Position numbers and translations under genes: made by a program
From: an uncultured Gammaproteobacteria bacterium
GTDB lineage: Bacteria; Patescibacteriota; Patescibacteriia; Buchananbacterales; UBA6539
Reading direction: 5' to 3'
Assembly (NCBI GenBank): GCA_964535715.1
Contig: CAZHUO010000003.1
Location: 256 to 64,255 of the forward strand
Length of the DNA stretch: 64,000 nucleotides
Notes under the pieces: generated by a model
The model's input: the letters and a program-made list of their open reading frames with translations, nothing else
Databases searched by the model: none
What the model was told of the DNA's origin: nothing
Part shown: positions 3,834-32,700 of the stretch, one piece after another
Position numbering within the stretch: position 1 is the first letter of the stretch
How the letters are laid out: each line of letters opens with the position of its first letter

Positions 3834-3864
3834 AGCGCGCCATTTTTTGCGCGTTTTATTTTAA
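3834..3864 (+). terminator. Intrinsic terminator after the receiver
   Basis: GCGCGCC-atttttt-GCGCG hairpin followed by TTTTATTTT. Confidence 0.5.
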
Positions 3865-3958
3865 CAATTGACGGTTCGAGGAATAAAGAGTATATTAATA
3901 TGATGCTTTTTCCTGGTTTATTTTCTAGTATAATTGATTTAATTTTTAATAATTTACA

Positions 3959-5191
3959 ATGACTCAAGTGAATAAAAAAGGTAATGTTTTAATGGGTGCT
4001 CAATTTTGGGCGTACGGCCCGGCTGGCAAAGCGAATGCCATCGCCCATGAATTAAAAAATTTAGGCATCAGAGTGGATTTTGTTGGTGCCGAAACATCAT
4101 ACCAGCTGTGTAAAGCCTCTGGCCATTTTAATAATTTATATAATTTTAATTCCGGTCCACGTTTGGATAAATTCCCCAATTATCAAGTTGTTGTTTCGGT
4201 TATGGATCCATATCTTGCCTTATGGGCTTACAAGAGGAAACTTCCATTAATTTATGCAGATAGTATGTCATGGTTTTGGCGCTGGAAAGATATAAATTCT
4301 ACTTCTGTTAAAAATTTTTTAGTTCATGTTGAAGATATTGGTTTCAACGAGGGTTGTAAAATATTAGATGAGTTTCAGCCAGATCAACGTCAGCTTTTTG
4401 CCCATTTGATCTCTGATAAGATTTTGGGGCAAGGCAATCCTCAGGTCGTAAGTGAAACGAAAGATAAGGCTTCAAACGCTGGTTCAATGATTGATTTAAA
4501 CTATATTAAGAAGACAAACAGAGATACTTTGTTAATTTCTTTAAGTGGTGGCATCTCGCCAGCCACTGACCTTGAAGCGGCTTTGAAGTATACAAAATTA
4601 ATTATAGATTTATTAGAGAATAGACTTGAAAAGTGGCCTGGTGCTAAACGCTTTGTTATAACTGGTCATCCTTTAGTAATTTCTAAATTCAAAAATTATC
4701 CAAAGATTCTAAAACCGACGGCTCTTTCCCAACCTGATTTTTTGAAAGAATTAAATCGGGCAGTGGCCGTGTTAGTGCCATGCGGATTTACAACCATTTA
4801 CGAATCTTTAGCTTATGGTGCGCCCGTTGCTTTTCTGCCCGAGAATCATAATGGTCATGTTTATGAATATTTAACCATTACTAAGGGTATAGATGATCTA
4901 GGTAAAAAAGAAAAAGTTTTTCCGCATGCGTTATTTTGCATTAAGGACGCTGATTTAAATAAGATTAAACCGATTGAGGAATCAATGGATCTGATAAAGA
5001 ATTATACTAATCAATATTTTAATTCAGCTGATTTTAAAAATTATTATTTGAATAAAGTTGACTGGTGGCTTGATTATTTTAAAAATGCCAGGACGATTTA
5101 TGCCAATCAGAGAAAACAGATTTTGACAACCATCCCCGACTTTCGAGGAGCGGTTAGGGTAGCAAAGGCCGCTGCTAAAATTATTAAATAG
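3959..5191 (+). CDS. GT-B fold glycosyltransferase (GT1/GT28, MurG/UDP-glycosyltransferase-like)
   Basis: Gly-rich N-terminal acceptor-domain loop (GAQFWAYGPAGKANA). The C-terminal donor-domain pattern is ...GHP...PCGFTTIYESLAYGAPVAFLPENHNGHVYE. Confidence 0.55.
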   Translation: MTQVNKKGNVLMGAQFWAYGPAGKANAIAHELKNLGIRVDFVGAETSYQLCKASGHFNNLYNFNSGPRLDKFPNYQVVVSVMDPYLALWAYKRKLPLIYADSMSWFWRWKDINSTSVKNFLVHVEDIGFNEGCKILDEFQPDQRQLFAHLISDKILGQGNPQVVSETKDKASNAGSMIDLNYIKKTNRDTLLISLSGGISPATDLEAALKYTKLIIDLLENRLEKWPGAKRFVITGHPLVISKFKNYPKILKPTALSQPDFLKELNRAVAVLVPCGFTTIYESLAYGAPVAFLPENHNGHVYEYLTITKGIDDLGKKEKVFPHALFCIKDADLNKIKPIEESMDLIKNYTNQYFNSADFKNYYLNKVDWWLDYFKNARTIYANQRKQILTTIPDFRGAVRVAKAAAKIIK

Positions 5192-5192
5192 T

Positions 5193-6152
5193 ATGAAAAA
5201 AATATTATATTTAGGTACATCCCAGTTTTCCGAAATGATGAACACCGAAAGGTGGCAGCTTACTAACGGAATGATTAAGACCGAAAGCTTTATCTTTTTT
5301 GATCTAAAACAACGTCAAGAAAAAAATATAGATTTATACAAATTATGGGTCAAAAATAATAGACCCAGTTTTATTATACTGGAAGATTACGATTGGGCTC
5401 ATAAATTAGATTTGCCACTTGAATATATTAACGCGGACAAGGTTCCCGTTCCTGTTTTGGGTTTTATTGCAGATTATTGGTATGATCCGAAAGAGAAGCT
5501 GGAATATTATGTTAAAAATAATATTAAGGGTTTGATTGCGATTCACGAAGCAGCAAATCAGTATATCAATGAAAATTTTGGTCAACAGATCAAAAAGATA
5601 TTTAATATACCATTTTCCATTGATGGAAATGAATTTTCGGATAAACCCAGGCAAAAAGAATATGATATTTTATGTTCTGGCTTTATGGGAGATTTATATC
5701 CATTGCGCCAGAGAATCCGAGACATCTTAAAGCAGAATTCAAAAATTAATACTTATTTTTTAGAACATCCCGGTTACTGGAAAAAAAATGAGAAAGTTGG
5801 CTTACGGGGCAAGGATTATTATGCGGTTATGGAAAAGGCAAAGTTCGTCATCTCAAGTACTGGAATCTATAATATCAGCGCTAGAAAACATATAGAAATA
5901 GTAGCTTCTCGGGCAAAAATACTAGGTAATATTACAGGATTTGACGAGCATAAGATTTTTGAAAGTTTTACTTTGCCGCTGGATCGTAAAATGACCGACG
6001 AGCAAATTAACAGCTTAATTGAGGAGGGGGTTAAAAATTGGGGTTGGTCAAGTGAGAATGAGAAAAATAGGCAATTAGTTTTAAATATGCATGATCCTGC
6101 CCTTATAGCAAAATCTCTCACAGATAAATTAGAACAAGATGGTAATGTATGA
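5193..6152 (+). CDS. CgeB-like / glycosyltransferase-family-1-like protein (DUF3880-like)
   Basis: The pattern resembles spore-maturation CgeB-type GT1_2 domains (YDILCSGFMG...R...L, Y..ME.AKFVIS). The assignment is tentative. Confidence 0.35.
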   Translation: MKKILYLGTSQFSEMMNTERWQLTNGMIKTESFIFFDLKQRQEKNIDLYKLWVKNNRPSFIILEDYDWAHKLDLPLEYINADKVPVPVLGFIADYWYDPKEKLEYYVKNNIKGLIAIHEAANQYINENFGQQIKKIFNIPFSIDGNEFSDKPRQKEYDILCSGFMGDLYPLRQRIRDILKQNSKINTYFLEHPGYWKKNEKVGLRGKDYYAVMEKAKFVISSTGIYNISARKHIEIVASRAKILGNITGFDEHKIFESFTLPLDRKMTDEQINSLIEEGVKNWGWSSENEKNRQLVLNMHDPALIAKSLTDKLEQDGNV

Positions 6153-7798
6153 ATAAGCCAGATTTGAAAAAAATTAATGTTGTCATACTGGCTGCTGGTA
6201 AAGGAACCCGGATAAAAAAAGTAGCTTCTGGTACTCCAAAAGCTTTGCTTGAAATCGCCGGCATCCCAGCATTGGTTTTAATAATGAGAAGATTAATAAA
6301 GCAGGGGTTCAGGACATTTACCCTGGTTGTTAATAAGGATAATAAAAAGCAGATCGAAGATGTTGTTAAAAATGCTTTTGCCGGTGTCAACCTTAATTTG
6401 GAAGCCATCATTCAGCCTCAGTCTAAAGGCCCGGCTCACGCTTTTTTCTATGGCCTTAAAAAAGTTAATTTGGATAATGACACGTTGCTTTGCTTGTCGG
6501 ATACATTATTTGATGAAGATTTACCGGTTGGCTATGATTGGGTCGGTACCTCTTTGGCAAAAGGTGTCGGTAAATGGTGCTGGGTAGAAACAACAAATAA
6601 AAAAGTTATTAATTTTTTTGACAAAATCCAACCGCCAAAGCACGTTGAAGAGGTTTTGATTGGCTTGTATTATTTTAATAATTCAAAGTTTGTTTATGAT
6701 GAATTAGCTAAAATTATTAGAAGCAATTCTAAACGAGCCGAGGGGGAGTTTCAGCTTAGCCAGATACTCGATCTTTATAAAAGTAAGCATAATATAAAAT
6801 CTTTTATAGTTAATAGTTGGATTGATTGTGGAACCGAAGAAAATTATTTTAATGCACAAAAAATATATACGAATCATCGTCATTTTAACTCAATCATTAT
6901 CAAAAACGGCAATTCTAATTGTTGCATCGTCAAAAAAGGCAATCAAAATAAAATACAAAATGAAATAGATTGGTTCAATTTGGCTGTTAAGCAGAATAGA
7001 TTAATGGTTCCTAAGATTAGGAAGAACAGCAAGAATTCTTACAAAATGAATTTTATTAATGATCCTCTTTTATCATCTCTGTATTTATATAATCCAATTA
7101 ATATTAATGACTTTTTAAAGATAATAAGGAAGTTATACAGTTTCGCCGTTAAATATCTTTGGCGTGACGGTAAAAAATATAAAGATATTAATATAAAAAA
7201 TGATTGTCAGTTGATGTACGAGAATAAGCCGTTTGAGAGATTAATGGATTGGGAGATGTGGAGGACTTTTAAATCCATTCGGGCGATTAAAATTAATGGT
7301 AAGAATTATAGTAAACTTTATGATTTGTTGTCTAAAGCCTTGAAATTGTCCTCATTAAACAATCATAAGCCCGTGAAGAGCTTGATTCATGGTGATTTTC
7401 ATTTTGGCAATATTTTTTACAACAAAAGAAAACAATCTTTTGTATTCATTGATCCACGCGGTAGATTTGGAAATTCCAGCGGCATGGTAGGCGATATTTA
7501 TTATGATTTAGCCAAGTTGCGCCATTCATATCACGGAATGTATGATGCGATAGTTGAGGGGCTTTATGTTTTAGATAGAAAGTCAAAAGGTAATTTTGTT
7601 TTTAAAGTCGGTCCTGTCCGTAGCCAATATATAAAAAAGATTGATCAATTTATTTCGTCTTCGGGGTTTGATATCAGTGTGGTTAAATCTATAGAATTAG
7701 GAATTTTATTAAGCCTTATTCCATTTCATCAGGAGTCCCAAAATAATCAATTGGCATTTTTTCTGCAAGCAGTTATGTTGGCTCAAGAATTAGTTTAA
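6149..7798 (+). CDS. Bifunctional protein with an N-terminal sugar-phosphate nucleotidyltransferase and a C-terminal APH/choline-kinase-fold kinase (AmgK/MurU-like or LicA/LicC-like fusion)
   Basis: The NTP_transferase G-loop is VVILAAGKGTRIKK....PKALLEIAG. The C-terminal kinase motifs are LIHGDFHFGNIFY and FIDPRGRFG...GDIYYDLAKL (Brenner/APH catalytic loop plus a DFG-like motif). Confidence 0.7.
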   Translation: MNKPDLKKINVVILAAGKGTRIKKVASGTPKALLEIAGIPALVLIMRRLIKQGFRTFTLVVNKDNKKQIEDVVKNAFAGVNLNLEAIIQPQSKGPAHAFFYGLKKVNLDNDTLLCLSDTLFDEDLPVGYDWVGTSLAKGVGKWCWVETTNKKVINFFDKIQPPKHVEEVLIGLYYFNNSKFVYDELAKIIRSNSKRAEGEFQLSQILDLYKSKHNIKSFIVNSWIDCGTEENYFNAQKIYTNHRHFNSIIIKNGNSNCCIVKKGNQNKIQNEIDWFNLAVKQNRLMVPKIRKNSKNSYKMNFINDPLLSSLYLYNPININDFLKIIRKLYSFAVKYLWRDGKKYKDINIKNDCQLMYENKPFERLMDWEMWRTFKSIRAIKINGKNYSKLYDLLSKALKLSSLNNHKPVKSLIHGDFHFGNIFYNKRKQSFVFIDPRGRFGNSSGMVGDIYYDLAKLRHSYHGMYDAIVEGLYVLDRKSKGNFVFKVGPVRSQYIKKIDQFISSSGFDISVVKSIELGILLSLIPFHQESQNNQLAFFLQAVMLAQELV

Positions 7799-7805
7799 TA
7801 ATAAA

Positions 7806-8537
7806 ATGAAAAAAGGGGTAACAATTATTTCATCAACCGCACAAGATATTTTTGTTGATTCAGAAAATAAGGTTGTAAAAAAGAAAAAAGGCGGGCCAGG
7901 TTACTTTATCAGGCAAGCATTGGAAGACAGAAAGGTTCCTTTTAATAATATCAATAAGTGGGACACTAAGATAGAATTATATTTGACCAAGTCCGGAAAA
8001 CCAAACAATAAATTATTTAAGGGTAAGGTTGTAGGAGTAGTGCCTAAATTTAATTTGCCAATAAAACAGATGACGGAATATAGTATTGTTTCAACTATCG
8101 CTAATGAATGGAAATTAAGGGAAATAAAAAATTATAAAGGTAAGTTGTTTCTAGATATCCAGGGTTATGTTCGAGATCCGAAGAAATTTTCAGTTAAAAA
8201 ACAATGGCCTCAAATTTCTTCTTTGGTAGAATATATTTATTGTCTTAAGGGTACAAACCAAGAGGTTAAACTTTTACCTAAAAGTGTTATCAATATTGCT
8301 AAGAAAAAATTATTGATAATAACCGACGGTTCAAATAAAGTAAAGGTGTTCCATGATAATAAGAAGTTTGAATTCAGCATTGTTAAAGTGAACAACCTTT
8401 TCGATTACATTGGTGCGGGTGATACTTTTTTCGGCCATTTTGTTGCCGGCTTATACAAAGGATTTACTATGAATAATTCGGCTAAAATTGCCATTAATAA
8501 GACTAGAATTTTTTTAGAAAATAAATTAACTATTTAA
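7806..8537 (+). CDS. PfkB-family (ribokinase-like) sugar kinase, short form
   Basis: C-terminal GAGDTF anion-hole signature (DYIGAGDTFFGHFVAGL). N-terminal GG-like dinucleotide (KGGPGYF). Confidence 0.6.
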   Translation: MKKGVTIISSTAQDIFVDSENKVVKKKKGGPGYFIRQALEDRKVPFNNINKWDTKIELYLTKSGKPNNKLFKGKVVGVVPKFNLPIKQMTEYSIVSTIANEWKLREIKNYKGKLFLDIQGYVRDPKKFSVKKQWPQISSLVEYIYCLKGTNQEVKLLPKSVINIAKKKLLIITDGSNKVKVFHDNKKFEFSIVKVNNLFDYIGAGDTFFGHFVAGLYKGFTMNNSAKIAINKTRIFLENKLTI

Positions 8538-8549
8538 TTATCAAAAACT

Positions 8550-9203
8550 ATGAAACCATGGCAAGAAAATAGAAAAGAAACTAAGAAATTTTTTCAAAAA
8601 AAACAAAAAGAAGGTTTGTCATTAGGATCATCTCCCTGGACTACGCTAGCAGTTGGTAAGGAATTGCAACAATTAGTAATTGATGGCGTTATCAAGGAGG
8701 GAATGGTCGCTATGGACGTGGGCTGCGGAATTGGCGTAGAGGCAATGTATCTAGCCAAGCAGGGATTAAAAGTTACTGGTCTCGATTTTATACCCAAGAC
8801 TATTGAAACAGCCAAAGAAATGGCTAAGTTAGCTGAAGCGGATGTTGATTTAATCTCTGATGATTTTATCGATATGGATTTAAAAGAATACGAAGGCAAA
8901 TTTGATTTAGTTATTGATCAGGGTTGTTTTCACCATATTCCGGTAGAGGAAAGAATTAACTATGCTGAAAGAGTTTATTCTTTGTTGTCAGATGACGGGA
9001 TATTTTTTTTGCGGGGATTTTCTGATGAGATGTTGCCTTCACCAACTGGCGATGGCCCGATTAGACTGACTTCAGATGCTATTATTCATAGTTTTTATAA
9101 GTTGTTCTTTATTGAGAAACTTTATCGGTTTAGAAATATACCTTTGCCTAATGTGAATAAACCTCAAATTTTTTGGGCTTTTTTAGGTAAGAAGAGGTGT
9201 TAA
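8550..9203 (+). CDS. Class I SAM-dependent methyltransferase
   Basis: Motif I VAMDVGCGIGVEA. Motif post-I VTGLDFIP. Motif II LVIDQGCFHHI. Confidence 0.75.
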   Translation: MKPWQENRKETKKFFQKKQKEGLSLGSSPWTTLAVGKELQQLVIDGVIKEGMVAMDVGCGIGVEAMYLAKQGLKVTGLDFIPKTIETAKEMAKLAEADVDLISDDFIDMDLKEYEGKFDLVIDQGCFHHIPVEERINYAERVYSLLSDDGIFFLRGFSDEMLPSPTGDGPIRLTSDAIIHSFYKLFFIEKLYRFRNIPLPNVNKPQIFWAFLGKKRC

Positions 9204-9658
9204 AATATTTTATGCCAAAATCAAAGACTATAAAAACAAGATCAGGAAAAATTGTTCACTATTCAGTAGGAGCATTAATTAGAAAAAACGGCAAGTATCT
9301 TCTTGTTGATCGAAAAAAACCTCCGTTTGGCTTTGCTGGTATTGCCGGTCATATCGAAGTTAATGAAGATAAGGATATAGCCTTAAAACGTGAAGTAAAG
9401 GAGGAGAGTGGCTTGGATGTAAAAAAATTTAAACTACTTTTTAAAGAGAAGATTGATTGGAATTCGTGTAGTAAGGGTGTAAACAGTCACTTTTGGTATC
9501 TTTATAAATGTGAGGTCGTGGGCAAAGTAAAAGAGAATAAAATGGAGGTTAAATCTATTGGGTGGTATTCAATAAAAGATATTCAAAAATTAAAACTGGA
9601 GAAAGTCTGGGAATATTGGTTTAGGAAAATCAATGTTATAAAAATTAATTATGAATAA
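9197..9658 (+). CDS. NUDIX hydrolase
   Basis: Nudix box GHIEVNEDKDIALKREVKEESGL (GX5EX7REUXEEXGU). Confidence 0.8.
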   Translation: MLKYFMPKSKTIKTRSGKIVHYSVGALIRKNGKYLLVDRKKPPFGFAGIAGHIEVNEDKDIALKREVKEESGLDVKKFKLLFKEKIDWNSCSKGVNSHFWYLYKCEVVGKVKENKMEVKSIGWYSIKDIQKLKLEKVWEYWFRKINVIKINYE

Positions 9659-11078
9659 CAGAATTGTCTTAATATCATTGTATGATTTAGATTCCATAGC
9701 GATTCGAACCCTTCATTCTCTTTTAGAAAAAAATAAATTTGATGTATCTTCTATTTTTTTCGGTGAGACGGTTCATAATGTTGACATGCCTGTTTTGTCA
9801 GTAAGCCAAGTTAAAAGTTTGCTTAAACTTATAGAAGATGTTGATCCGGTTTTAGTCGGAATTAGTGTTAAATCTTTATTTTTCAACATAGCTAGCAAAT
9901 TAACTAATGAAATAAAGAAAAAATTGAATATAAAGGTTATATGGGGAGGTATTCATCCAACAATAATGCCAGATAATTGTCTTAAATTTTCAGATATGGT
10001 GTGTGTTGGAGAGGGGGAAGGATTGATATTGGATTTGATGAATAGATTATCGAGAGATAGGCCGATAGACGATATTAATAATTTATGGCTGAATATAGCA
10101 GGAAAAGTCATCAATAATAACTTACGGCCTTTAATCCAAAATTTAGATTCAATACCTTCGACGGATTTTTCTAACCATAAAAAGTATTTTATTAAGAATG
10201 ATGGCCATATTTATAATCCAAATCAGGTAAAGGAGAAATATTATTTTTGTCTTACAACTCGTGGCTGTCCGCTTAACTGCTCTTATTGCTATGGTAGCGT
10301 GCTGAGAAGGATTTATCACAATAAGGGTAATTATTTAAGAAGAAGAGGTGTAAATAATGTAATAGAGGAATTAGTGTCTGTAAAGAAGAATTTCAAGAAT
10401 TTAAAGTTTATATTTTTTACTGATGATGTATTTACTTTTGACATCGATTGGTTGTTTGACTTTTCGAAGAAATATAAGAAAAATATAAATATACCATTTC
10501 GTTGTTATTGTCACCCTAAAATGCTTAATGAAAAAATTTTAAAAATTCTAAAATATGCTGGAGTTGAAAAAATAAAAATTGGCATACAATCTGGATCTGA
10601 GGTAATAAGGCATGACTATCTGAAAAGGTATGATACCAATAAGGAGATAATAGTGGTTGCTAAGCTGTTAAAGAAATATAAAGTCAGTTGCCACTATGAT
10701 TTAATTGTTGATAATCCTTTAGAATCGGAAGAAGATAAGTTGGAAACCTTAAATTTATTGTTAGAATTGCCTCGACCATTTGAACTCTCTACCTTTATTT
10801 TAACTAATTTCCCCGGAACAGATCTTACAAAATTATTTGTAGATAAAGGAATAATTTATGAGGATGATGTAGAGGGTAGCGATAAAATAACTAGCAAATG
10901 GAGGCCAGAATTGGATTTTTCTAGAGGAAATGACTATGTATTTTGGAACACTTTGTATCATTTGGTTAAAAAAAATTATATACCTAAAAAATTTATAATT
11001 AAATTAAGTAAAAATTATTTTTTCAAAAATAATCCAAGGCCAGTTGCTACTTTGATGAAGCATATATTAAAAAATTAA
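9651..11078 (+). CDS. B12-binding-domain radical SAM protein (class B radical SAM)
   Basis: N-terminal Rossmann-like B12-binding region. CPLNCSYC (CxxxCxxC) radical SAM cluster motif at about residue 206. Confidence 0.7.
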   Translation: MNNRIVLISLYDLDSIAIRTLHSLLEKNKFDVSSIFFGETVHNVDMPVLSVSQVKSLLKLIEDVDPVLVGISVKSLFFNIASKLTNEIKKKLNIKVIWGGIHPTIMPDNCLKFSDMVCVGEGEGLILDLMNRLSRDRPIDDINNLWLNIAGKVINNNLRPLIQNLDSIPSTDFSNHKKYFIKNDGHIYNPNQVKEKYYFCLTTRGCPLNCSYCYGSVLRRIYHNKGNYLRRRGVNNVIEELVSVKKNFKNLKFIFFTDDVFTFDIDWLFDFSKKYKKNINIPFRCYCHPKMLNEKILKILKYAGVEKIKIGIQSGSEVIRHDYLKRYDTNKEIIVVAKLLKKYKVSCHYDLIVDNPLESEEDKLETLNLLLELPRPFELSTFILTNFPGTDLTKLFVDKGIIYEDDVEGSDKITSKWRPELDFSRGNDYVFWNTLYHLVKKNYIPKKFIIKLSKNYFFKNNPRPVATLMKHILKN

Positions 11079-11096
11079 TTATATAAGAAAGTATTT

Positions 11097-11540
11097 ATGA
11101 AAATAACAATTTGTGGCAGCATTTCTTTCTTTGACGAAATGAATGAAATTAAGTCAAAGCTAGAAAAAATGGGACATAAAGTAAAATGTCCTCTGTATGA
11201 AATTAAAAACCATAACGGTGAGAAGATATCTGATCGAGAGTATTACGAGATTAGAAAGAAATCAACTCACCGTAAAAAATGGGTTTGGGAACAGAAAGGA
11301 GAGGCAATTAAGGAGCATTTTCGTAAGGTTATGTGGTCTGATATTATTCTAGTTGTTAATCATGACAAGGGTGATATTAAGGGATACATAGGTCCGAATA
11401 CTTTAATGGAAATGGGATTAGCTTTTTTCAAAAATAAAAAAATATTTTTGTATAATAAAATTCCAAACATTCCTTTGCGCGAAGAAGTATTAGGCCTAAA
11501 GCCTATTGTAATTGATAAAAATCTTAAAATGATTCAGTAG
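11097..11540 (+). CDS. Nucleoside 2-deoxyribosyltransferase-like (flavodoxin-like fold) small protein
   Basis: N-terminal MKITICGS. C-terminal GPNTLMEMGLAFF with a candidate Glu nucleophile, as in the NDT/PnuC-associated family. The assignment is tentative. Confidence 0.3.
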   Translation: MKITICGSISFFDEMNEIKSKLEKMGHKVKCPLYEIKNHNGEKISDREYYEIRKKSTHRKKWVWEQKGEAIKEHFRKVMWSDIILVVNHDKGDIKGYIGPNTLMEMGLAFFKNKKIFLYNKIPNIPLREEVLGLKPIVIDKNLKMIQ

Positions 11541-11576: not shown

Positions 11577-12608
11577 ATGTTAAACGAAATCGAAAAATTA
11601 AAAGAGTCATTTAACCAGGAAATTGATGCTATTTCTAATATTGACATGCTAGATAAGCTAGAGGTTGATTATTTGGGCAGGAAATCCGGTAAGTTGAATA
11701 ATATATTACGTGGGCTTAAAGACTTATCAGAAGATGACCGTAAGAAAATTGGTTCTTTGGCTAATCAGTTAAGAAAAGAAATTGAAGGAAGAATTGTATC
11801 TAAACGGAAAGAGTTGTCTCACAGTAAGTCTAGCGTAGAGTTTTTAGATGTTACTCTACCAGGGACTAAGTTACCGGAAGGGCATCTGCATTTAGTAACC
11901 CAGGCGATAAGGGAAATAACCCACATATTTGAAAGGATAGGTTTCACTCGGGTTAAATACCCGGAAGTTGAGTGGGATTATTATGCTTTTGAAGCTTTGA
12001 ATATGCCACCTGATCATCCGGCTCGTGATGAATGGGAGACTTTTTTTATTGATAAAGATCCGGTAGGCCCTAAAGGTAAAAGAGTTTTAACCCCTCACAC
12101 TTCTTCCGGCCAGGTTAGAGAGATGGAAAGAGGAAAATTGCCGATACGAATGATTAATATTTCTAAGTGTTATAGGCGACAGGCTGATGTTTCCCATTTA
12201 GCGATGTTTCATCAGTTTGAAGGACTATTAATTGATGAGCATGTAACTATTGCAAATTTAAAAGGAACCCTTGAATATTTTTTCAAAAATTATTATGGTC
12301 CAGACAGGCAATATCGTTTAAGGCCTTTTCATTTCAGATTTACTGAGCCGAGTTTTGAAATTGATGTTTCTTGTGATCTCTGCAAAGGCAAGGGATGCAA
12401 GATGTGTAAAGCTGGCTGGCTTGAACTTGGTGGCGCCGGGATGGTTCATCCTAATGTTTTGAAAGCTGGAAAAATTGACCCCAATAAATATTCTGGCTTT
12501 GCTTTTGGCTGGGGCGTTGAAAGAGTATTTTTAATGAAGCCGGGATTGAATATCCCTGATATTAGAATGCTGTATAATAATGATTTGAGATTTTTGCAGC
12601 AATTTTAA
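11577..12608 (+). CDS. pheS: Phenylalanine--tRNA ligase alpha subunit
   Basis: Class II motifs: TSSGQVR, FHQFEGLLID, GWLELGGAGMVHPNVL and GFAFGWGVERV. It carries a 4-Cys insertion (CDLCKGKGCKMCK). No pheT follows. Confidence 0.9.
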   Translation: MLNEIEKLKESFNQEIDAISNIDMLDKLEVDYLGRKSGKLNNILRGLKDLSEDDRKKIGSLANQLRKEIEGRIVSKRKELSHSKSSVEFLDVTLPGTKLPEGHLHLVTQAIREITHIFERIGFTRVKYPEVEWDYYAFEALNMPPDHPARDEWETFFIDKDPVGPKGKRVLTPHTSSGQVREMERGKLPIRMINISKCYRRQADVSHLAMFHQFEGLLIDEHVTIANLKGTLEYFFKNYYGPDRQYRLRPFHFRFTEPSFEIDVSCDLCKGKGCKMCKAGWLELGGAGMVHPNVLKAGKIDPNKYSGFAFGWGVERVFLMKPGLNIPDIRMLYNNDLRFLQQF

Positions 12609-12671: not shown

Positions 12672-13796
12672 TTACGAAAGGTAGCCGTGAGTGCCACTTT
12701 GGTTTACGCCCAGGTAGACCCGGTTGCGTAACTCATTGGCTTCCTCTTGGAGCAATGATCTCTCGTGAGACCTGAGGACAATTCTTGCCAGGATATTCTT
12801 TTGACCTGGCTTTATCCCGAGGCGTTGGATTGCCTGCGGAGGCAGATCGTCATACGCCGTTTCCGACAAGATGGTTACTTCTTCCAATATCTCTACCTTG
12901 TCGTCCATAGCATCTCTTATCGCCTCGCAGATGTCTTCCTCGGTGCATTCGTTAGCCACCGAAAATGACATGTCCTGTCGAACGGGAGGATACTTTGAGA
13001 CTGGCTGGTAGTGATCGAGATTGGCCATCTGACGCTTGATTCTTGGATCTTCCGATCGGAGAATACGAATGTCGTCGATGCCCTTGATAATCATCACCAG
13101 TCGATCCAATCCCATACCCATCGCCAGCCCGGAATATTCCTCTGGGTTTAATCCGGCGTCGTTCAGGACCTCAGGATGAGCTTCGCCACATTCTAGGACT
13201 TCCAGCCACTCGCCTTTAACGAGAATCTCCACCTCTAGACCGTTGATAGTGTAGGGATGTTTCACCTCGTTCGCCCGATATTCACAACCAGGCACGACAA
13301 GTGAGATTACGGTCTCGATCAGAGAAATCAGTGCCTGACGTTCAAGTCGAGGTTCACCTTTCCTGACTCGCCAGATGTCCAGCTGATGCGGTTCGCCACA
13401 ATGGGTCTTGTTGACAACGTCACGGCGATAGCATATCCCCGGACAAATAACGAGATAGTCATCGACACCTCTTTCCCTTGCCTTCTGTAGAACGTCGGGG
13501 ATCATCGCTGAAGTGTGCGTCCTTAAGACTGTGTCATGGGACACATATCTCGTGTAGATTGAAGACCTGCCCGTATTGTCTTTAGGGAAACGCAGCCTGT
13601 CGAAATTGTTGGCCACCGTGGTTATTGGATTGGTTCTCACCACTTCTGGCGTTGGCCAATCCGCAAGCTCGATGAAACCGGTTACCAGTTTCTGAACAAC
13701 AAGGTTGATGGCGTGAATACCATTTTTTGGATCGGAAAGATCCGGGATCGCTAGAGTTTCCCTTAGTCTTCTCTCGGTCATCACTTCTATTCTCAT
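12672..13796 (-). CDS. Monomeric (mitochondrial-type) PheRS-like protein with a PheS class II catalytic core fused to a C-terminal FDX-ACB anticodon-binding-like domain. It is GC-rich. The start is probably at the internal Met preceded by AGGAGG; the ORF track extends it to 13841.
   Basis: Class II motifs LRTHTS, ICPGICYRRD, WLEVLECGEAHPEVL and YSGLAMGMGLDRL. The C-terminal ~100 aa resemble the FDX-ACB domain of PheT and mitochondrial PheRS. The coding GC is about 50%. Confidence 0.65.
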   Translation of the reverse strand: MRIEVMTERRLRETLAIPDLSDPKNGIHAINLVVQKLVTGFIELADWPTPEVVRTNPITTVANNFDRLRFPKDNTGRSSIYTRYVSHDTVLRTHTSAMIPDVLQKARERGVDDYLVICPGICYRRDVVNKTHCGEPHQLDIWRVRKGEPRLERQALISLIETVISLVVPGCEYRANEVKHPYTINGLEVEILVKGEWLEVLECGEAHPEVLNDAGLNPEEYSGLAMGMGLDRLVMIIKGIDDIRILRSEDPRIKRQMANLDHYQPVSKYPPVRQDMSFSVANECTEEDICEAIRDAMDDKVEILEEVTILSETAYDDLPPQAIQRLGIKPGQKNILARIVLRSHERSLLQEEANELRNRVYLGVNQSGTHGYLS

Positions 13797-13866
13797 TGTA
13801 TTCACCTCCTTTCTCTGTAAGGTTTGAGTTTCAAAGGTCATTATTTCCTAACTAGGAAATCATTTT

Positions 13867-14769: not shown

Positions 14770-15375
14770 ATGAAAAGATTACTTTTAACATCTCATGGCT
14801 TTTCTGATGAACCTGTCCGTAAGGCATTTTTAAAATTATTAGATAAGCCAGTAAAAAATTTAACCGCCGCCATAATTACCACAGCCTCGGTTGATCATAA
14901 AGAAAATAATAAATATGCTGTCTCAACCAAAGAGTATTTTGAAAAATTGGGATTCAAAGAAGTTGAGTTTGCTGACATAGAATTTGATGATCCAAATATA
15001 CTTAAAAATTTTGATTTCATCTATATAAACGGTGGTAATACATTTTATCTCTTACACCACCTCAAGAAAAGTGGTGCCGATGAAGTATTAAAAGAAATAG
15101 CCGACAAAGCTATTTTAGTCGGCACCAGCGCCGGTGCTGTAGTTTTGGGGCCGGATACTAAAATCGCAGCCGAGTTTGACGACGAGCGAAATACGGTCGG
15201 ACTAAAGGATTTTTCAGCCTTAGATTTAACTGATATTATTGTCATCCCTCATTATCGCGAGGAATTAGAAAGCGACATTAAAAATTTTGAAAAAGAAAAT
15301 AGCTGTAAAGTGACTAGATTAAAAGACGGCCAGGCAGTGAGTATAATGGGTAATAAAGTTGAATTTATCGGATAG
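14770..15375 (+). CDS. Peptidase E / S51 family (class I glutamine amidotransferase-like) dipeptidase
   Basis: YINGGNTFYLL ... LVGTSAGAVV (Ser nucleophile context of PepE/cyanophycinase-like enzymes). Confidence 0.7.
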   Translation: MKRLLLTSHGFSDEPVRKAFLKLLDKPVKNLTAAIITTASVDHKENNKYAVSTKEYFEKLGFKEVEFADIEFDDPNILKNFDFIYINGGNTFYLLHHLKKSGADEVLKEIADKAILVGTSAGAVVLGPDTKIAAEFDDERNTVGLKDFSALDLTDIIVIPHYREELESDIKNFEKENSCKVTRLKDGQAVSIMGNKVEFIG

Positions 15376-15666
15376 ACTATTTATGCTATAAAAGTTTGAT
15401 TAAGTCAAATTTTTTTACTCATTTTTTCTTTTTATACTGTTGCATTCATCTCATTTACCCTGACCCATTCGACTTCGCTCAGGGTCACCTCGAGTGGAAT
15501 CGAGAGGTGACCGACCCCCGTCAGAACTCATTCTCAAAAGACCCCTGAAACCTTGCCAATAATTGGTTCCAGACCGCAGTGCGGAGCTGAGGATTTTTTG
15601 TTTAGGCAGTCACAGTGGTAGAGTCCCGCGAATGCGGGGTTAACCAATCGGTTCCTGGTTCTGCGC

Positions 15667-15745
15667 CACCTTAATTAATCAAAAAGGCGCATCCCCGCCA
15701 TAGGCGGACAAGCGTCTACGGCGGAGAGTCCAGGCCGCGGAGTAA
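15667..15745. repeat. GC-rich hairpin/pseudoknot-capable repeat, copy A. It is the first unit of a ~114-bp tandem repeat.
   Basis: AAAGGCGCATCCCCGCCATAGGCGGACAAGCGTCTACGGCGG. The unit recurs at 15781 and 45398. Confidence 0.6.
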
Positions 15746-15780
15746 AGGGCTTATTTTATTAAAAAAAATCGTTTCTGCTT

Positions 15781-15880
15781 CACCTTAATTGACTAAAAAG
15801 GCGCATCTTCTCCATAGGCTGACAAGCGCCTCTGACAGGGATTCCAGGCCGCGGCGCCGAGGATTTTTAAAATTAAAAAA
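15781..15880. repeat. GC-rich repeat copy B (tandem with A, period ~114 bp)
   Basis: CACCTTAATTGACTAAAAAGGCGCATCTTCTCCATAGGCTGACAAGCGCCTCTGACAGGGATTCCAGGCCGCGG aligns with copy A, including its flanks. Confidence 0.6.
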
Positions 15881-15924
15881 AAACCATTTTTTCTGGCTTC
15901 TTTTTTTGTGTTAAAATTATTTTT

Positions 15925-17199
15925 TTAGCTGAATATTTTTTTAAATTCTTCCAAGACAACATTTTTATCATTCCAATTAATCTTTTTTCCATCAGCCAGG
16001 CACATTGAATTTTCCGATCCTTTACCGGTGATTATTACCACATCATCTTTATTGGCAGATTTTAGAGCCTCTGCTATTGCTTTTCTTCGATCAATCATTT
16101 TTTTGGCTGAAGTATTATTTTTGGCTATTTCGTTAATTATTGCCATCGGATCTTCATCGTAGGGGTCTTCATTTGTAATAATTGTTTGATCGCAATATTT
16201 TGAAGCCAGTTTGCCTAAAATCGGCCTTTTCCATTTATCTCTGCCGCCGCCGCAAGACCCTAAAACACATATTAATTTGTTTTTTTGGCTTTCGGTTTTT
16301 AGCGTTTGATATGCCTTTTCCAATGAATCGGGGGTAACGGCATAATCAACAAATACTTTATAAGGTGCGGAAATTATTTGTTCCATCCTGCCGGGCATTA
16401 TTTTTATTTTATTTAAGGCATTTTTACAAACATTTAAACTGATATTTTGTGAAAGCCCCAAGGATACAGCCGCCAGCGCATTGTAGATATTGAATTTGCC
16501 CAAAAGATTAAGGCGAAACTTAACACCATCTAAATAAAAGACGGAACCGTCTTTCAAGCATTGATAATCTTTTGTGGCAATTTTCTTTATGTCAAGAAAT
16601 TTATTTGTATTTTTAAGTTTTAGACTGTATAAGTATTTTTTCTCCGACTTAAAATTAAGGAAGTATTCAAAATTATCATCATCAGAATTAATTATATGAA
16701 TATTTTTATTAAGCCTGAAAAGTTCACCTTTTGACTTAAGATAATTTTCAAAACCGCCGTGTGCTTCCAAGTGTTCCGGTGTAACATTGGTAATTATAAC
16801 TGCTTCAAAATCAATAAACCTATGACGATGTTGCTTTATGCCTTCTGAGCTTACTTCAACTACGACATATTGGCAATTTTTTGAAACAGCTTGCCGTAAT
16901 AATTTTTGCAAAGAAAATCTGCCCGGCATTGTCATTCTTGAATCGTTAGGCCAGCTTTTTTCTCTTATTTGAAAATAGACAGAAGACGAAACGGCAATTT
17001 CAAAGCCGGCTTCTTTTAGAATTTCCGAAATCATTCTGACTACGGTTGATTTTCCGTTTGTTCCGGTTACACCGATAACTTTTATTTTTTTGGAAGGATA
17101 TCTGTAAATCATGCAAGCCAAAAAAGCCATGCATAAATGGTAAAAACTAAACGCTGATTTTGGCAGAATTTTTTTAAAAATTGATTTAATATTTTGCAT
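15925..17199 (-). CDS. Mur ligase family protein (MurE/MurT/CapB-like; lacks the MurE N-terminal domain)
   Basis: P-loop VIGVTGTNGKSTV. Mur ligase middle and C-terminal domain patterns are present. Confidence 0.7.
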   Translation of the reverse strand: MQNIKSIFKKILPKSAFSFYHLCMAFLACMIYRYPSKKIKVIGVTGTNGKSTVVRMISEILKEAGFEIAVSSSVYFQIREKSWPNDSRMTMPGRFSLQKLLRQAVSKNCQYVVVEVSSEGIKQHRHRFIDFEAVIITNVTPEHLEAHGGFENYLKSKGELFRLNKNIHIINSDDDNFEYFLNFKSEKKYLYSLKLKNTNKFLDIKKIATKDYQCLKDGSVFYLDGVKFRLNLLGKFNIYNALAAVSLGLSQNISLNVCKNALNKIKIMPGRMEQIISAPYKVFVDYAVTPDSLEKAYQTLKTESQKNKLICVLGSCGGGRDKWKRPILGKLASKYCDQTIITNEDPYDEDPMAIINEIAKNNTSAKKMIDRRKAIAEALKSANKDDVVIITGKGSENSMCLADGKKINWNDKNVVLEEFKKIFS

Positions 17200-17360
17200 T
17201 TTGACTTTCTATTTATTTTGCCTATATAAATGATATAATAATATTGATTATTTTGCCAGCTTGAATTATAATTCGCGAAATTTGACGCCATTTGGCAGTT
17301 TATTTGTTTGTTATTTTCTGTTATAATTATTTTTAGATTAAGTAATTGATATAATATTAC

Positions 17361-18377
17361 ATGAATAACATTCCCTATATAAAAATTACTGCCAAAGATA
17401 ATTATGACCTTGGCTTTAAATTGGGAAAAAGATTGCATGGCAATATAAAAGATCGTATAACGGCAAACAAACGCCTTTATAAAAAAATGGGGGCAAAGAG
17501 TTTTTCTAAGTTGATTGAAATGTCTTTAAAATTTTTGCCGGCAGTAGAAGAGAATTTTCCGCATTTTTTATCTGAAGTCAAGGGTTTAAGTTCAGGATCC
17601 AAGGTTAAGTTTGAGGATCTAATGGTCTTAATATGCGAGGAAGAGGTGCTGGGACTAAAAATACCAAAGTGCACCAATGTAGCCGTTAAAAACAGCAATG
17701 AAGTTTTGATTGGACATAACGAGGACTGGCTTCATGCATATAAAAATAACGGACTTTATATTTTAAATTGCCGAATAAAAAACCGTCATTCCCTAAGCTT
17801 GAATTATATGGGAACTTTAGCCGGTTCCAGCTGCGGTTTAAACGACAGCGGTTTGTGCTTTACCGCCAATTCGTTAAGCCCAACCAGATTCCGCTACGGC
17901 GTCCCGATAAAATTTCAGTTCCGGGCGATTTTGGATTGCAAGACCGTCAAACAAGCAATTTATTCGGATATTAAAGAAAGCAGCATCTGCGGCAATACCA
18001 TTTATGGCTGGAGAAATTCACGAATTTTGGATGTTGAAGACCATTTCGGCCATCATGATTTTTTTCAAAGCGAAAAATTTTTGATTCATACAAACCATCC
18101 GTTACAAAAAGAAGACAGAAACAGAATAAACACAAAAAAAGAGTCAATAGACAGATATAATAGGGCGCTGGAAATATTAAATCAGGTAAAGAAATATGAT
18201 TTGCCGCTGCTGAAGAAAATATTGGTTGATCATGAGGCCGGAATTTGCAGTCATCGCGAAAAAAATACTTTTTGGGGCTCTACTATTGCGTCCGTAATTA
18301 TGAATCCGAAAAAAAAATGGATGGAAGTTTGCTGGTCTAATCCTTGCAAGAACGAATACTTAAGGCATTATCTTTAA
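17361..18377 (+). CDS. Peptidase C45 / acyl-CoA:6-APA acyltransferase-like Ntn hydrolase
   Basis: The central GHNEDW motif and Cys-containing blocks are typical of the C45/AAT family. Confidence 0.5.
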   Translation: MNNIPYIKITAKDNYDLGFKLGKRLHGNIKDRITANKRLYKKMGAKSFSKLIEMSLKFLPAVEENFPHFLSEVKGLSSGSKVKFEDLMVLICEEEVLGLKIPKCTNVAVKNSNEVLIGHNEDWLHAYKNNGLYILNCRIKNRHSLSLNYMGTLAGSSCGLNDSGLCFTANSLSPTRFRYGVPIKFQFRAILDCKTVKQAIYSDIKESSICGNTIYGWRNSRILDVEDHFGHHDFFQSEKFLIHTNHPLQKEDRNRINTKKESIDRYNRALEILNQVKKYDLPLLKKILVDHEAGICSHREKNTFWGSTIASVIMNPKKKWMEVCWSNPCKNEYLRHYL

Positions 18378-18435
18378 ATATTTTTAAATTAATATATCAA
18401 ATTTATTTGTTTTGGCTCAAATTGAGTTTTTTTTG

Positions 18436-18464
18436 TTGACTTTTTTGATTATTTATCAGATAAT
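18436..18464 (+). promoter_or_regulatory. Sigma70-like promoter TTGACT-17-GATAAT upstream of the ATP-grasp cluster
   Basis: Read directly; about 55 nt upstream of the ATG at 18520. Confidence 0.45.
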
Positions 18465-18519
18465 TAATAATGTTGCCATTATTTTTTTGGCCAAATAAAT
18501 TTAAGATTAAAAGATAAAA

Positions 18520-22304: not shown

Positions 22305-22308
22305 ATTT

Positions 22309-28655: not shown

Positions 28656-28659
28656 TAAT

Positions 28660-29028: not shown

Positions 29029-29095
29029 ACTAGTAAGCATAGAACACATAACATATAACATATAAAGCGAAAAATTTTTTTATGTCATATTTTAT

Positions 29096-30046: not shown

Positions 30047-30388
30047 GTTTGTTTAAAAAATGACTATTTAGATTAGAACTTTGTCCAAAATTGCTATTAG
30101 AGTATCAATGACGCTTACAAGTCATTTTTTTAAATTAGGCATTTGGTTATTATTTTAAAAATATGTTATAATATAATAAAGATTTTATTTTAAAATAGGG
30201 GAATTTTTAGCAATAGCTGACTCTCAAAAAATAATTATAAATTGGCTAGAGCATTGATTTAGAGCGGTATAGTAGACAGTTTTTAATTTCGATTCAATAT
30301 TTAATAACTTAATTTTTTAAGTGTTTCAAAATTCTGATTTAAACATTCATTTAAAATTCGAATTTTTGTATATTTTTTAATTTTTCTA

Positions 30389-30969: not shown

Positions 30970-30996
30970 CTTAAAAAAATTAATCGAATTTGAATT

Positions 30997-32682: not shown

Positions 32683-32700
32683 AAGTTAACTTTTATAATT

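Follow-up and report, generated by a model that had tools for sequence, protein, structure and literature searches.

In the window, the 64,000-nucleotide stretch of DNA that was analyzed, one gene raises the question of whether a nucleotidyltransferase and a kinase are genuinely joined in a single polypeptide and, if so, what this enzyme makes and for which partners. The gene and its parts are as follows.

6149..7798, + strand: predicted AfhE-family fusion ORF of 549 aa, with a sugar-1-phosphate nucleotidyltransferase at the N-terminus and an ELK/APH-fold kinase at the C-terminus
6170..6868, + strand: RmlA-like nucleotidyltransferase domain with sugar-binding subdomain, residues ∼8–240 (PDB, Foldseek, and NCBIfam matches)
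6188..6241, + strand: NTP-binding loop L14-AAGKGTR21 ... K31, pairing with the GGSGTR...K loop of RmlA
6413..6415, + strand: Q89, counterpart of the base-contacting Gln Q83 of RmlA in the HMMER alignment, invariant in the subfamily
6869..6928, + strand: interdomain linker, residues ∼241–260, the sole dip in pLDDT (61–70)
6881..7795, + strand: divergent APH/choline-kinase (eukaryotic-like kinase) fold domain, residues 245–549 (domain model, Foldseek)
7388..7411, + strand: catalytic loop H414-G-D416-F-H-F-G-N421 (Brenner motif), with D416 the probable base and N421 a probable metal ligand
7448..7528, + strand: clade signature I434-D-P-R-G-R-F-G441 ... G448-D-I-Y-Y-D-L-A-K-L-R-H-S460, with D435 the DFG-equivalent metal ligand

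The ORF is confirmed as a genuine two-domain protein, with a motif set far beyond chance. The earlier note had read it as a single polypeptide combining a nucleotidyltransferase with an APH/ChoK-fold kinase and had warned of a frameshift or stop between the domains; none was found across the 549 codons, and both domains are recovered by profile or fold matches. The opposite strand has stops throughout, and M1 is invariant across close homologs. A frameshift or pseudogene reading was rejected on the basis of the intact frame and more than 100 co-linear homologs. The AlphaFold (AF2) model of the whole fusion has a pLDDT of 91.1 and a pTM of 0.90, and the domain boundary lies in the linker. The motifs singled out earlier, GxGxR...K, HGDFHFGN, and IDPRGRFG...D, are present at L14–K31, H414–N421, and I434–G441 plus D449, and catalytic residues are kept in both halves.

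The N-terminal half matches Pfam NTP_transferase (PF00483; E 5.5e-17; 62.6 bits vs. a gathering cut-off of 21.2), RmlA in the PDB (1h5s; E 6.4e-10; residues 11–238), and, with Foldseek, RmlA 6b5e (E 1e-13; TM to target 0.69). Its best named families are Arch_glmU (NCBIfam TIGR03992; 4.5e-20; residues 10–242), AglF, and RmlA_long, all of which are UTP/dTTP sugar-1-P transferases, and there is a weak NCBIfam match to inositol-1-P cytidylyltransferase. The RmlA equivalog cut-offs are missed (TIGR01208, 62.7 bits vs. 320; TIGR01207, 41.7 vs. 361). The close subfamily shows no variation at G17, G19, T20, R21, K31, D118, K159, and D226. Contacts to the sugar phosphate are also retained: D158-K159 pairs with E162-K163 of RmlA, and W224-x-D226 is at the same position in both. 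The HMMER alignment around Q89 reads 'IIQPQSKGPAHAF' versus 'KVQPSPDGLAQAF'. Because Q89 is aligned with Q83 of RmlA, a base contact established by RmlA structures and variants (titles of PDB 3pkp and 3pkq), the domain is predicted to use a pyrimidine NTP (UTP or dTTP).

A full-length Foldseek search was swamped by RmlA, and the C-terminal domain was therefore modeled alone (pLDDT 94.1). This model matched MTR kinase, APH(2''), APH(3'), macrolide phosphotransferases, and choline/ethanolamine kinases, all at a probability of 1.00, with MTR kinase 2pul as the top neighbor (3.9e-6); across these structural neighbors, TM is ∼0.5 and identity 11–15%. Pfam APH (PF01636) reaches 21.9 bits for the window protein alone (E 1.7e-4) against a cut-off of 23.2, and 28 of 37 (best 7.4e-9) and 37 of 71 relatives match it at E ≤ 0.01. 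When a kinase-only profile was compared with the PDB, only APH(2'') was reached (APH(2'')-Id, 8.9e-4), and the APH(2'') alignment pairs the beta3 Lys, alphaC Glu, and HGD loop with those of the C-terminal domain. As a single sequence the kinase half had no match in the PDB, a mixed profile was dominated by the N-terminal domain, and no named family exceeded 16 bits in an NCBIfam search of the kinase half. Residues of bilobal kinases are nevertheless kept (K262, E272, H414–D416, N421, and D435). H414, G415, D416, and N421 are invariant in alignments of 37 and 71 sequences, as are D435, R437, Y452, and K456 in the 37-sequence alignment, with D449 downstream of G441. Basic residues K360, R364, R437, K456, and H527, on substrate-side helices of the kinase, are invariant as well.

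Annotated phage records and then PMC13326640 led to AfhE, reported as a dual arabinose-5-phosphate kinase/UDP-arabinose pyrophosphorylase (He et al., Nat Chem Biol 2026, as cited in PMC13326640). According to this source, AfhE of Escherichia phage HY126, together with DLP3 gp82 and RB69 gp52:53, is a D-arabinose-5-phosphate 1-kinase/UDP-D-arabinofuranose pyrophosphorylase, and its kinase product feeds the transferase. The HY126 gene was taken as AfhE because it is homologous to DLP3 gp82 and syntenic, and from the account in the secondary source PMC13326640. A window-family profile (A2) aligned with five phage AfhE-type proteins over 507 columns (hhalign, 100%, E 5.6e-52), comparison with ORF047 of phage 9183 gave 28% identity (E 3e-53), the kinase core matched an AfhE-type protein in BLASTP (E 7e-7), and the HY126 protein has the IDPRG-FG / YD-AK motif of the window clade. 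Judged by these alignments, the window fusion belongs to the AfhE family as a cellular representative, homologous end to end. The earlier note had seen close homologs annotated as a characterized bifunctional enzyme as a challenge to its case, and this applies in part, since a characterized bifunctional homolog does exist in AfhE, but it is distant: the HY126 protein alone aligns at 98.7% (hhalign, E 2.4e-16, 436 columns, residues 10–494) with 23% identity. The design is already known, and what differs in the window branch is its gene company.

The architecture is also common. Clustering the kinase clade at 50% identity gives at least 1,463 clusters. Because the same fusion is present in 113 of the best 150 representatives, and 55 of 71 sampled sequences have a recognizable NTP_transferase N-terminus, the fusion is taken to be ancestral in the clade. 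Members are found in capsule/polysaccharide loci, plasmids, phages, and candidate-phyla bacteria, and lone kinase relatives (Marivita, Omnitrophota) lack an adjacent transferase. The view that the two activities are normally encoded by separate genes is thus not supported for this clade, where the fused form is the norm, and characterized fusions are known in AfhE, of the same family, FKP, and LicCA. Nor is a transferase-first domain order unusual, since it occurs in FKP (PMC11982464) and in AfhE-type proteins (PMC13326640). The suggestion that the fusion channels its intermediate is unsupported, and published precedent speaks against presuming it: no tunnel was found between the active sites of FKP (PMC11982464), and in the AfhE pathway as described in PMC13326640 a separate phosphatase, AfhF, acts on the intermediate between the kinase and transferase steps.

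Which enzymes would use the product is suggested by the genes on either side of the fusion.

3834..3896, + strand: likely operon start, a terminator-like hairpin after a response-regulator gene, then promoter-like TTGACG-17-TATATT (consensus scan only)
3959..5191, + strand: partner 1, 410-aa divergent, putative GT-B glycosyltransferase-like protein (CGA-synthase/MJ1255-like)
5193..6152, + strand: partner 2, 319-aa CgeB-type (Glyco_trans_1_2-like) protein, its stop overlapping the fusion start (ATGA)
7806..8537, + strand: short PfkB-family (ribokinase/nucleoside-kinase-like) protein, 243 aa (PF00294, 6.2e-10; NF041164 nucleoside kinase, 1.4e-9)
8550..9203, + strand: partner 3, SAM-dependent methyltransferase (TPMT/CMAS/UbiG-like; Pfam Methyltransf_25, 6.3e-16)
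9197..9658, + strand: NUDIX hydrolase, accessory (PF00293, 2.9e-13)
9651..11078, + strand: B12-binding radical SAM enzyme (HpnJ/lipid-type rSAM-like), accessory (PF04055 and PF02310)
11097..11540, + strand: 147-aa protein, accessory, last gene ahead of pheS, no family match

From 3959 to 11540, genes overlap or are separated by gaps of at most 18 nt, and pheS is 36 nt further on. In L003, L004, L034, and L035/L036, loci retrieved for comparison, partner 1 adjoins the fusion, and match tables of both proteins suggest that the linkage extends to further contigs. All 24 members of its family match TIGR04467 (best 3e-11) and 22 of the 24 match TIGR00661; among named relatives, the best match of partner 1 is an enzyme that glycosylates cytosine as the free base. 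The family of partner 2 has 14 members, of which the two most distant match PF13524 at 5e-7, and in one 864-aa protein (P0003), present in two assemblies, partner 2 is fused in frame to the transferase-kinase. Profile searches of both partners against solved structures gave no match, and sub-threshold profile matches and transitive homology point to a putative GT-B assignment. Homology of the 410-aa and 319-aa proteins to phage neighbors of similar size was ruled out, as they are unrelated by comparison. The methyltransferase is in every related cluster and also accompanies the GT-B homolog in a locus that lacks the fusion.

The remaining genes are less constant. The PF00294 match of the PfkB-like protein covers its C-terminal half only, and the gene is window-specific in that it is missing in L003, L004, L034, and L035. 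Because the PfkB and NUDIX genes are missing in most related clusters, they fall outside the conserved core. The radical SAM enzyme matches TIGR03471 (2.6e-32) and TIGR04072 (1.1e-30), both far below cut-off, and the 147-aa protein has only a weak Nuc_deoxyrib_tr match (E 0.061). Minimal clusters L003 and L034 have no other transferase, mutase, or kinase. In all contexts examined, PheRS-type genes adjoin the cluster or lie close to it despite rearrangements, and a phosphoribosyltransferase is among the neighbors in L032.

We consider it probable that the fusion is a cellular AfhE-family sugar 1-kinase and UDP/dTDP-sugar pyrophosphorylase that supplies the neighboring transferases. The C-terminal kinase would transfer phosphate from ATP to the anomeric (C1) hydroxyl of its sugar, with K262/E272 as the ion pair, D416 as the base, and N421 and D435 as metal ligands. 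The RmlA-like domain would then join the sugar-1-phosphate to UTP or dTTP, yielding an NDP-sugar, with R21, K31, D118, K159, and D226 as the likely catalytic set. The NDP-sugar would be used by the pair of GT-B-type proteins that are co-conserved with the fusion and encoded immediately before it, and the methyltransferase may modify the sugar or its acceptor. The domain architecture and fold, the conservation of catalytic residues, membership in the family, and the linkage of the genes are observed; the two activities and the order in which they act are inferred, as are the preferred nucleotide and the enzymes that consume the product. Kinase-then-transferase is the best-supported mechanism.

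The state of the sugar is informed by genes that accompany AfhE in phages. In tblastn searches with four phage HADs, the best hits to an AfhF-type HAD phosphatase had E ≥ 1 in the window, L003, L004, L034, and L035, and with three phage SIS proteins no SIS isomerase was found below E 0.8 in any bacterial locus; phage controls were positive in both searches. Given a branch lacking both, a free (salvaged) sugar is a likelier substrate than a sugar 5-phosphate.

It is possible, but rather unlikely, that the kinase instead acts strictly as in AfhE, on C1 of an already phosphorylated sugar such as a pentose 5-phosphate, perhaps supplied by the PfkB-like kinase of the operon. Before the N-terminal domain makes the NDP-sugar, the distal phosphate would then be stripped by a phosphatase of a different type or one whose gene lies outside the cluster. 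The only characterized member of the family works in this way, phosphorylating a sugar 5-phosphate (PMC13326640), which counts against the free-sugar reading, as does an operon whose ribokinase-family (PfkB-type) kinase and NUDIX hydrolase could fit a route with a phosphorylated substrate. An AfhF-type HAD adjoins the fusion in the distant bacterial loci L007, L008, and L013 (E 1e-4 to 7.6e-30), and the invariant K360, R364, R437, K456, and H527 would suit an anionic substrate. A phosphatase encoded elsewhere may act with the window enzyme. However, neither the AfhF-type HAD nor the SIS isomerase was found in the window or the four related loci, and the PfkB and NUDIX genes are outside the conserved core.

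Pathways in which a transferase precedes a kinase exist, such as IspD then IspE and Campylobacter phosphoramidate synthesis. By analogy, the window transferase could first make NDP-X for the kinase to phosphorylate, or the kinase could act on a separate molecule, a glycan or acceptor, but we judge this improbable. The invariant basic residues of the kinase could bind a diphosphate, and distant relatives of the fusion belong to polysaccharide loci, in which glycan kinases are often found. Conversely, the minimal clusters offer no other source of sugar-1-phosphate, near-universal fusion argues for consecutive steps, and the kinase product feeds the transferase in the characterized homolog (PMC13326640).

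We give little credence to the idea that the AfhE-like enzyme, GT-B and CgeB-like proteins, and methyltransferase glycosylate a nucleobase, nucleoside, or nucleic acid in small-genome (candidate-phyla-type) bacteria rather than a polysaccharide, a system that would parallel, in cells, the arabinosylation of phage DNA. It arises because AfhE serves DNA glycosylation, because the closest named relative of partner 1 acts on cytosine, because some neighbors are nucleotide-flavored (PfkB nucleoside-kinase-like, NUDIX, and the L032 phosphoribosyltransferase), and because of the recurrent PheRS-type genes. Equally far-fetched is a LicCA-like enzyme, with a kinase acting on choline, ethanolamine, or a polyol and a transferase making a CDP-alcohol that decorates a glycan or lipid: LicCA of Treponema denticola is a characterized fusion of both activities (PMC8590670), two distant members of the family carry the JGI label 'choline kinase', and there is the weak cytidylyltransferase match, but Choline_kinase (PF01633) is absent from the window protein and matches weakly in 3 of 37 and 3 of 71 relatives, LicC (1jyk) aligns over residues 8–63 only (E 9.3e-4) whereas RmlA covers 11–238 including the hexose-binding subdomain, Q89 predicts UTP/dTTP and not CTP, and the partners are nucleotide-sugar-type GT-B proteins.

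If the fusion is indeed a sugar 1-kinase/pyrophosphorylase, the AfhE design is not phage-specific, and the phage enzyme represents a single offshoot of a very large, as yet unnamed family of single-protein modules for sugar activation. The window branch would have dropped the isomerase and phosphatase steps, leaving a minimal enzyme that converts free sugar to NDP-sugar. Such an enzyme would be of interest for making nucleotide sugars by one-pot chemoenzymatic synthesis, where FKP and NahK/GlmU are already in use, and would explain how scavenged sugars are activated in small-genome bacteria with few biosynthetic pathways. The donor of two conserved uncharacterized glycosyltransferase-like families, with 37 and 14 known members, would become predictable.

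Among known systems, MtnK (5-methylthioribose kinase), which phosphorylates an anomeric hydroxyl, is the best structural neighbor of the kinase half, but only at TM ∼0.5 and 11–12% identity, and TIGR01767 scores 15 bits against a cut-off of 275. RmlA, GlmU-N, and AglF have the same fold and catalytic loop as the N-terminal domain, with matching contacts to the sugar phosphate. Unlike these, the window domain is fused to a kinase; it is far under their equivalog cut-offs (62–72 bits vs. 292–400), and the RmlA pocket is altered (L89 to P95, N112 to T119, and E162 to D158). AmgK and MurU are a MurNAc/GlcNAc anomeric kinase and a uridylyltransferase; they and the NahK plus GlmU pair carry out the same two chemical steps with an APH-fold anomeric kinase and a small uridylyltransferase, but from separate genes. 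Membership in AmgK/MurU was rejected, as the MurU model (NF045761) reaches 31.6 of the 250 bits required and covers residues 11–64 only and AmgK and NahK chains are absent among the PDB profile matches of the kinase half. The comparison originally drawn with AmgK/MurU, LicA/LicC, and NahK is therefore one of fold-level analogues, not relatives. LicCA, a choline kinase/CTP:phosphocholine cytidylyltransferase (PMC8590670), likewise joins a nucleotidyltransferase to a kinase of the APH/ChoK superfamily, but the window N-terminal domain is nearer to RmlA than to LicC and its predicted substrate is a sugar with UTP/dTTP; with PF01633 absent and a partial LicC alignment, membership was rejected. FKP, the L-fucokinase/GDP-fucose pyrophosphorylase of Bacteroides fragilis, has a similar salvage logic and domain order, whereas it has 949 aa, a beta-helix domain, GTP specificity, and a GHMP-fold kinase; this identity was rejected, as Foldseek places the window kinase in the APH/ELK fold. 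The closest system is AfhE, with the same domain order and HGD..N / IDPRG-FG / YD-AK kinase signature at just ∼17–23% identity. It is a phage gene in a DNA-hypermodification module (thymidylate-synthase homolog, dNMP kinase, and DNA glycosyltransferases) with an adjacent AfhF HAD phosphatase and SIS arabinose-5-phosphate isomerase, whereas the window gene is cellular, belongs to a small-genome bacterium, and stands apart from these companions, and its sugar is likely different and likely not pre-phosphorylated.

Both domains lie in one reading frame, as the earlier note proposed: 549 codons run without interruption at window 6149-7798 (+), and the reverse strand is closed. The motifs it named are also where it placed them, with LAAG17-K-G19-T-R21 followed by K31 in the N-terminal domain and H414GDFHFGN421 and I434DPRGRFG441 followed by D449 in the C-terminal domain. 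In searches with Pfam models, the fusion matches NTP_transferase (E = 5.5e-17) and, weakly, APH (21.9 bits; cut-off of 23.2). The nearest NCBIfam models for the N-terminal 240 residues are UTP/dTTP sugar-1-phosphate transferases (Arch_glmU, 4.5e-20; AglF; RmlA_long), all scoring far under equivalog cut-offs, and no curated NCBIfam kinase family exceeds 16 bits for the C-terminal domain.

A first homolog search recovered ∼45 full-length relatives, with identities down to 22%, along with kinase-only stand-alone proteins of ∼320 aa. Relatives have generic database names ("dTDP-glucose pyrophosphorylase," "capsular biosynthesis protein," "phosphotransferase," and "hypothetical protein"). When the kinase half was searched exhaustively, 3,019 cluster representatives matched at E ≤ 1e-3, of which 1,463 reached E ≤ 1e-10. 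Of the best 150 representatives, 113 have a kinase domain that begins beyond residue 190, and complete stand-alone kinases number only 13; an NTP_transferase N-terminus is recognizable in 55 of 71 sampled fused representatives. Judging from these architectures, the fused form is the rule in a large kinase family. Kinase residues that are invariant or nearly so across family alignments of 37 and 71 sequences are K262, E272, K360, R364, N383, H414, G415, D416, N421, D435, P436, R437, G438, G448, D449, Y452, D453, K456, and H527, and the IDPRG-FG and YD-AK blocks form a clade signature.

The family extends to phages. In tblastn searches of annotated phage genomes, the kinase half matches genes annotated as NDP-sugar pyrophosphorylase-like in Enterococcus phages, Ralstonia phage phiRSL1, and cyanophages. 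ORF047 of Enterococcus phage 9183, which follows a small HAD hydrolase inside a nucleotide-metabolism module, is a full-length homolog (28% identity over fusion residues 11-542; E = 3e-53). With ORF047 as a bridge, relatives spanning ≥80% of that protein turn up in 269 phage records, including those of Escherichia phage HY126 and Acinetobacter phage DLP3. In the HY126 locus, genes encoding an isomerase, a 562-aa fusion, and a 128-aa protein are consecutive, and this triad is also present in DLP3 and Synechococcus phage S-SRM01. On the basis of homology, synteny, and a secondary source, we equate the HY126 fusion gene with AfhE, a phage arabinose-5-phosphate kinase/UDP-arabinose pyrophosphorylase characterized in 2026 (He et al., cited in PMC13326640). 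As outlined in that source, the SIS isomerase converts ribulose-5-P to Araf-5-P, the AfhE kinase forms Araf-1,5-bisphosphate, the HAD phosphatase AfhF yields Araf-1-P, and the AfhE transferase produces UDP-Araf, with which 5-hydroxycytosine in phage DNA is arabinosylated (PMC13326640). Compared directly, the HY126 protein matches the window fusion in the kinase core (E = 7e-7), with the IDPRG motif in common. A profile of the window subfamily matches the phage group with 100% probability (E = 5.6e-52; 507 columns) and the HY126 protein alone with 98.7% (E = 2.4e-16; residues 10-494). Because of these direct and profile matches, we place the window ORF in the AfhE family; that it both belongs there and has the two predicted activities is very probable. 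The fusion pointed out in the earlier note is therefore real and was correctly spotted, but it is not a novel design, given that a phage member has been characterized.

Three phage loci show varied surroundings of AfhE-like genes:

L037, Enterococcus phage 9183, record 28004-35380: HAD hydrolase and AfhE-like fusion amid nucleotide genes (thymidylate kinase, thymidylate synthase, dUTPase, thymidine kinase) and two glycosyltransferase-like genes
L041, Synechococcus phage S-SRM01, record 193177-199648: triad of SIS isomerase, fusion, and 3'-phosphatase, adjoining GDP-mannose dehydratase, GDP-fucose synthase, fucosyltransferase, and GT2
L038, Ralstonia phage phiRSL1, ORF230-238: 477-aa AfhE-like protein with a second nucleotidyl transferase, APS kinase, sulfotransferase-like protein, and dUMP hydroxymethyltransferase

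The gene content of L037 points to an as yet unreported modification of DNA or nucleotides with sugar in these 86-kb Enterococcus phages. The module of S-SRM01 appears linked to the synthesis of glycans, not to genes for DNA modification, and that of phiRSL1 may encode a pathway to sulfated or glycosylated hydroxymethyl-uracil.

An AlphaFold2 model of the fusion, built from the 37-sequence family alignment, has a pLDDT of 91.1 and a pTM of 0.90, and its sole soft region is the linker (residues ∼241-260). With Foldseek, the N-terminal domain superposes on RmlA (E = 1e-13; TM to target of ∼0.69). The sequence alignment with RmlA covers residues 11-238 and matches functional positions R21 and K31 of the NTP loop, D118, D158-K159 (E162-K163 of RmlA), and W224-x-D226. 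Fusion Q89 aligns with Q83, the base-reading residue of RmlA. Pocket positions depart from RmlA (L89 to P95 and N112 to T119), and so plain glucose is an unlikely substrate sugar. The C-terminal domain modeled alone (pLDDT of 94.1) has the APH/choline-kinase fold, with MTR kinase, APH(2''), APH(3'), macrolide phosphotransferases, ethanolamine/choline kinases, and fructosamine-3-kinase as structural neighbors. It is far from every solved member, the best structural matches having a TM of ∼0.5 and 11-15% identity. Searched against solved structures, a kinase-only profile finds APH(2'')-Id alone (E ∼9e-4), in an alignment where the beta3 lysine, alphaC glutamate, and HGD loop coincide.

The fusion gene is within a tight operon whose boundary appears to be a terminator-like hairpin and promoter-like site at 3834-3896. 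Genes for a 410-aa protein and then a 319-aa protein precede the fusion, and the stop of the second overlaps the fusion's start (ATGA). Downstream come, in this order, genes for a short PfkB-family protein, a SAM methyltransferase, a NUDIX hydrolase, a B12-radical SAM enzyme, and a 147-aa protein, with pheS next. Relatives with 45-69% identity keep a core of the fusion, the methyltransferase, and proteins of 400-410 aa and 300-320 aa, frequently with an FAD oxidoreductase; conservation does not extend to the PfkB, NUDIX, and radical SAM genes. The B12-binding radical SAM enzyme (9651-11078, +) is confined to the cluster as found in the window, and its best named relatives are lipid-related (hopanoid HpnJ, 2.6e-32; ladderane-type lipid rSAM, 1.1e-30), both far below cut-off.

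The 410-aa family has only 37 sequences, all ≥45% identical and none named. Since 24 of 24 tested members match the CGA-synthase model (best 3e-11) and 22 of 24 match the MJ1255/VC2487 glycosyltransferase family, the protein is predicted to be a divergent GT-B nucleotide-sugar transferase. In the 319-aa family (n = 14), the two most distant members match Pfam Glyco_trans_1_2 (5e-7). One relative, represented by two assemblies, encodes an 864-aa triple fusion (L035 3286-5880; L036 1264-3858), the counterpart of window 5193-7798, in which a homolog of the CgeB-like 319-aa protein (73% identity) runs in frame into the transferase-kinase (...KKKIIS-MNKPD...). This Rosetta-stone evidence argues that the proteins share a pathway. 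We also compared the 410-aa and 319-aa proteins with similar-sized phage neighbors and they are unrelated. In two loci, L032 (8001-12983) and L033 (5620-10602), the GT-B family is present without the fusion, and its neighbors there are genes for a phosphoribosyltransferase, an Asn/Asp-tRNA-synthetase-like protein, a radical SAM/SPASM enzyme, and the same TPMT/CMAS-type methyltransferase. Persistence of the pair without the fusion indicates that GT-B protein and methyltransferase are the deeper conserved unit.

Cluster relatives come from groundwater metagenomes and an "ACD" aquifer bin. In all contexts examined, PheRS genes adjoin the cluster or lie close to it despite local rearrangements:

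Window 11577-12608 (+) and 12672-13841 (-): PheRS genes
L004 827-3721, L034 4320-5591, L035 885-2027, and L003 18134-21598: PheRS genes in loci of close relatives

The window, L034, and L035 encode a protein of 380-423 aa that combines a class II Phe core with an FDX-ACB domain. Such an architecture would fit either a PheRS of the monomeric mitochondrial type or a minimal beta subunit; the window ORFs examined include no canonical pheT. Farther along, at 14770-23649, are genes for a cyanophycinase-type S51 peptidase, a minus-strand Mur-ligase-like protein, and two ATP-grasp proteins, the first of which has 807 aa and is double ATP-grasp/D-Ala-D-Ala-ligase-like; the group may be a cyanophycin-like or peptide-ligase system. 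The window has a GC content of ∼31-44%, includes type IV pilus, Uvr, and ATP-grasp genes, and across its 64 kb has no tRNA genes and no Rfam families at gathering threshold. Together with the groundwater and aquifer origin of the cluster relatives, these traits would suit a bacterium of the candidate phyla with a small genome.

In tblastn searches with positive controls, the phage-type HAD phosphatase was found neither in the window nor in close relatives' loci (best E ≥ 1), and the SIS isomerase was found in none of the bacterial loci searched. A homolog of the phosphatase is directly beside the fusion in three distant bacterial loci (tblastn; E of 1e-4 to 7.6e-30):

L007 8001-10734: polysaccharide cluster
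L008 8001-10385: Gracilibacteria glycosyltransferase cluster
L013 7285-9380: Komagataeibacter capsule locus

In this distant subfamily the GxGTR loop is replaced, for example by 'AAGPINYTNLPVGTNRSN', and the fusion is followed by a second NTP_transferase-like gene in L007 and L008. The fused N-terminal domain may be degenerate there, with the extra gene standing in.

The window branch is predicted to have lost, or never possessed, the phosphatase and isomerase. Its minimal clusters also have no other kinase or mutase, making a free sugar, probably scavenged, the more economical substrate. The kinase domain would phosphorylate the sugar's anomeric hydroxyl, the N-terminal domain would turn the sugar-1-phosphate into a UDP- or dTDP-sugar, both GT-B-type proteins would use it, and the methyltransferase would act on the sugar or acceptor. 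We favor this complete reading with moderate confidence. A strict AfhE-like route via a bisphosphate would place the phosphatase gene elsewhere and is unlikely. It is more doubtful still that the domains work in polypeptide order or on different molecules. LicCA-like alcohol activation is highly improbable, given that the fusion lacks a choline-kinase signature and has an RmlA-like sugar subdomain, and given the kind of partner proteins it has.

Channeling of the intermediate, which the earlier note had expected of a fusion, is favored by nothing in our analysis: AfhF, a separate phosphatase, works between the two steps of AfhE, and in FKP, which shares this domain order and is the best-studied such analogue, no tunnel joins the active sites (PMC11982464). 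The window fusion is predicted to be a distant cellular member of the AfhE family. AfhE loci have both phosphatase and isomerase genes, whereas the window branch, without either, is a distinct, phosphatase-less branch tied to two undescribed glycosyltransferase-like families.
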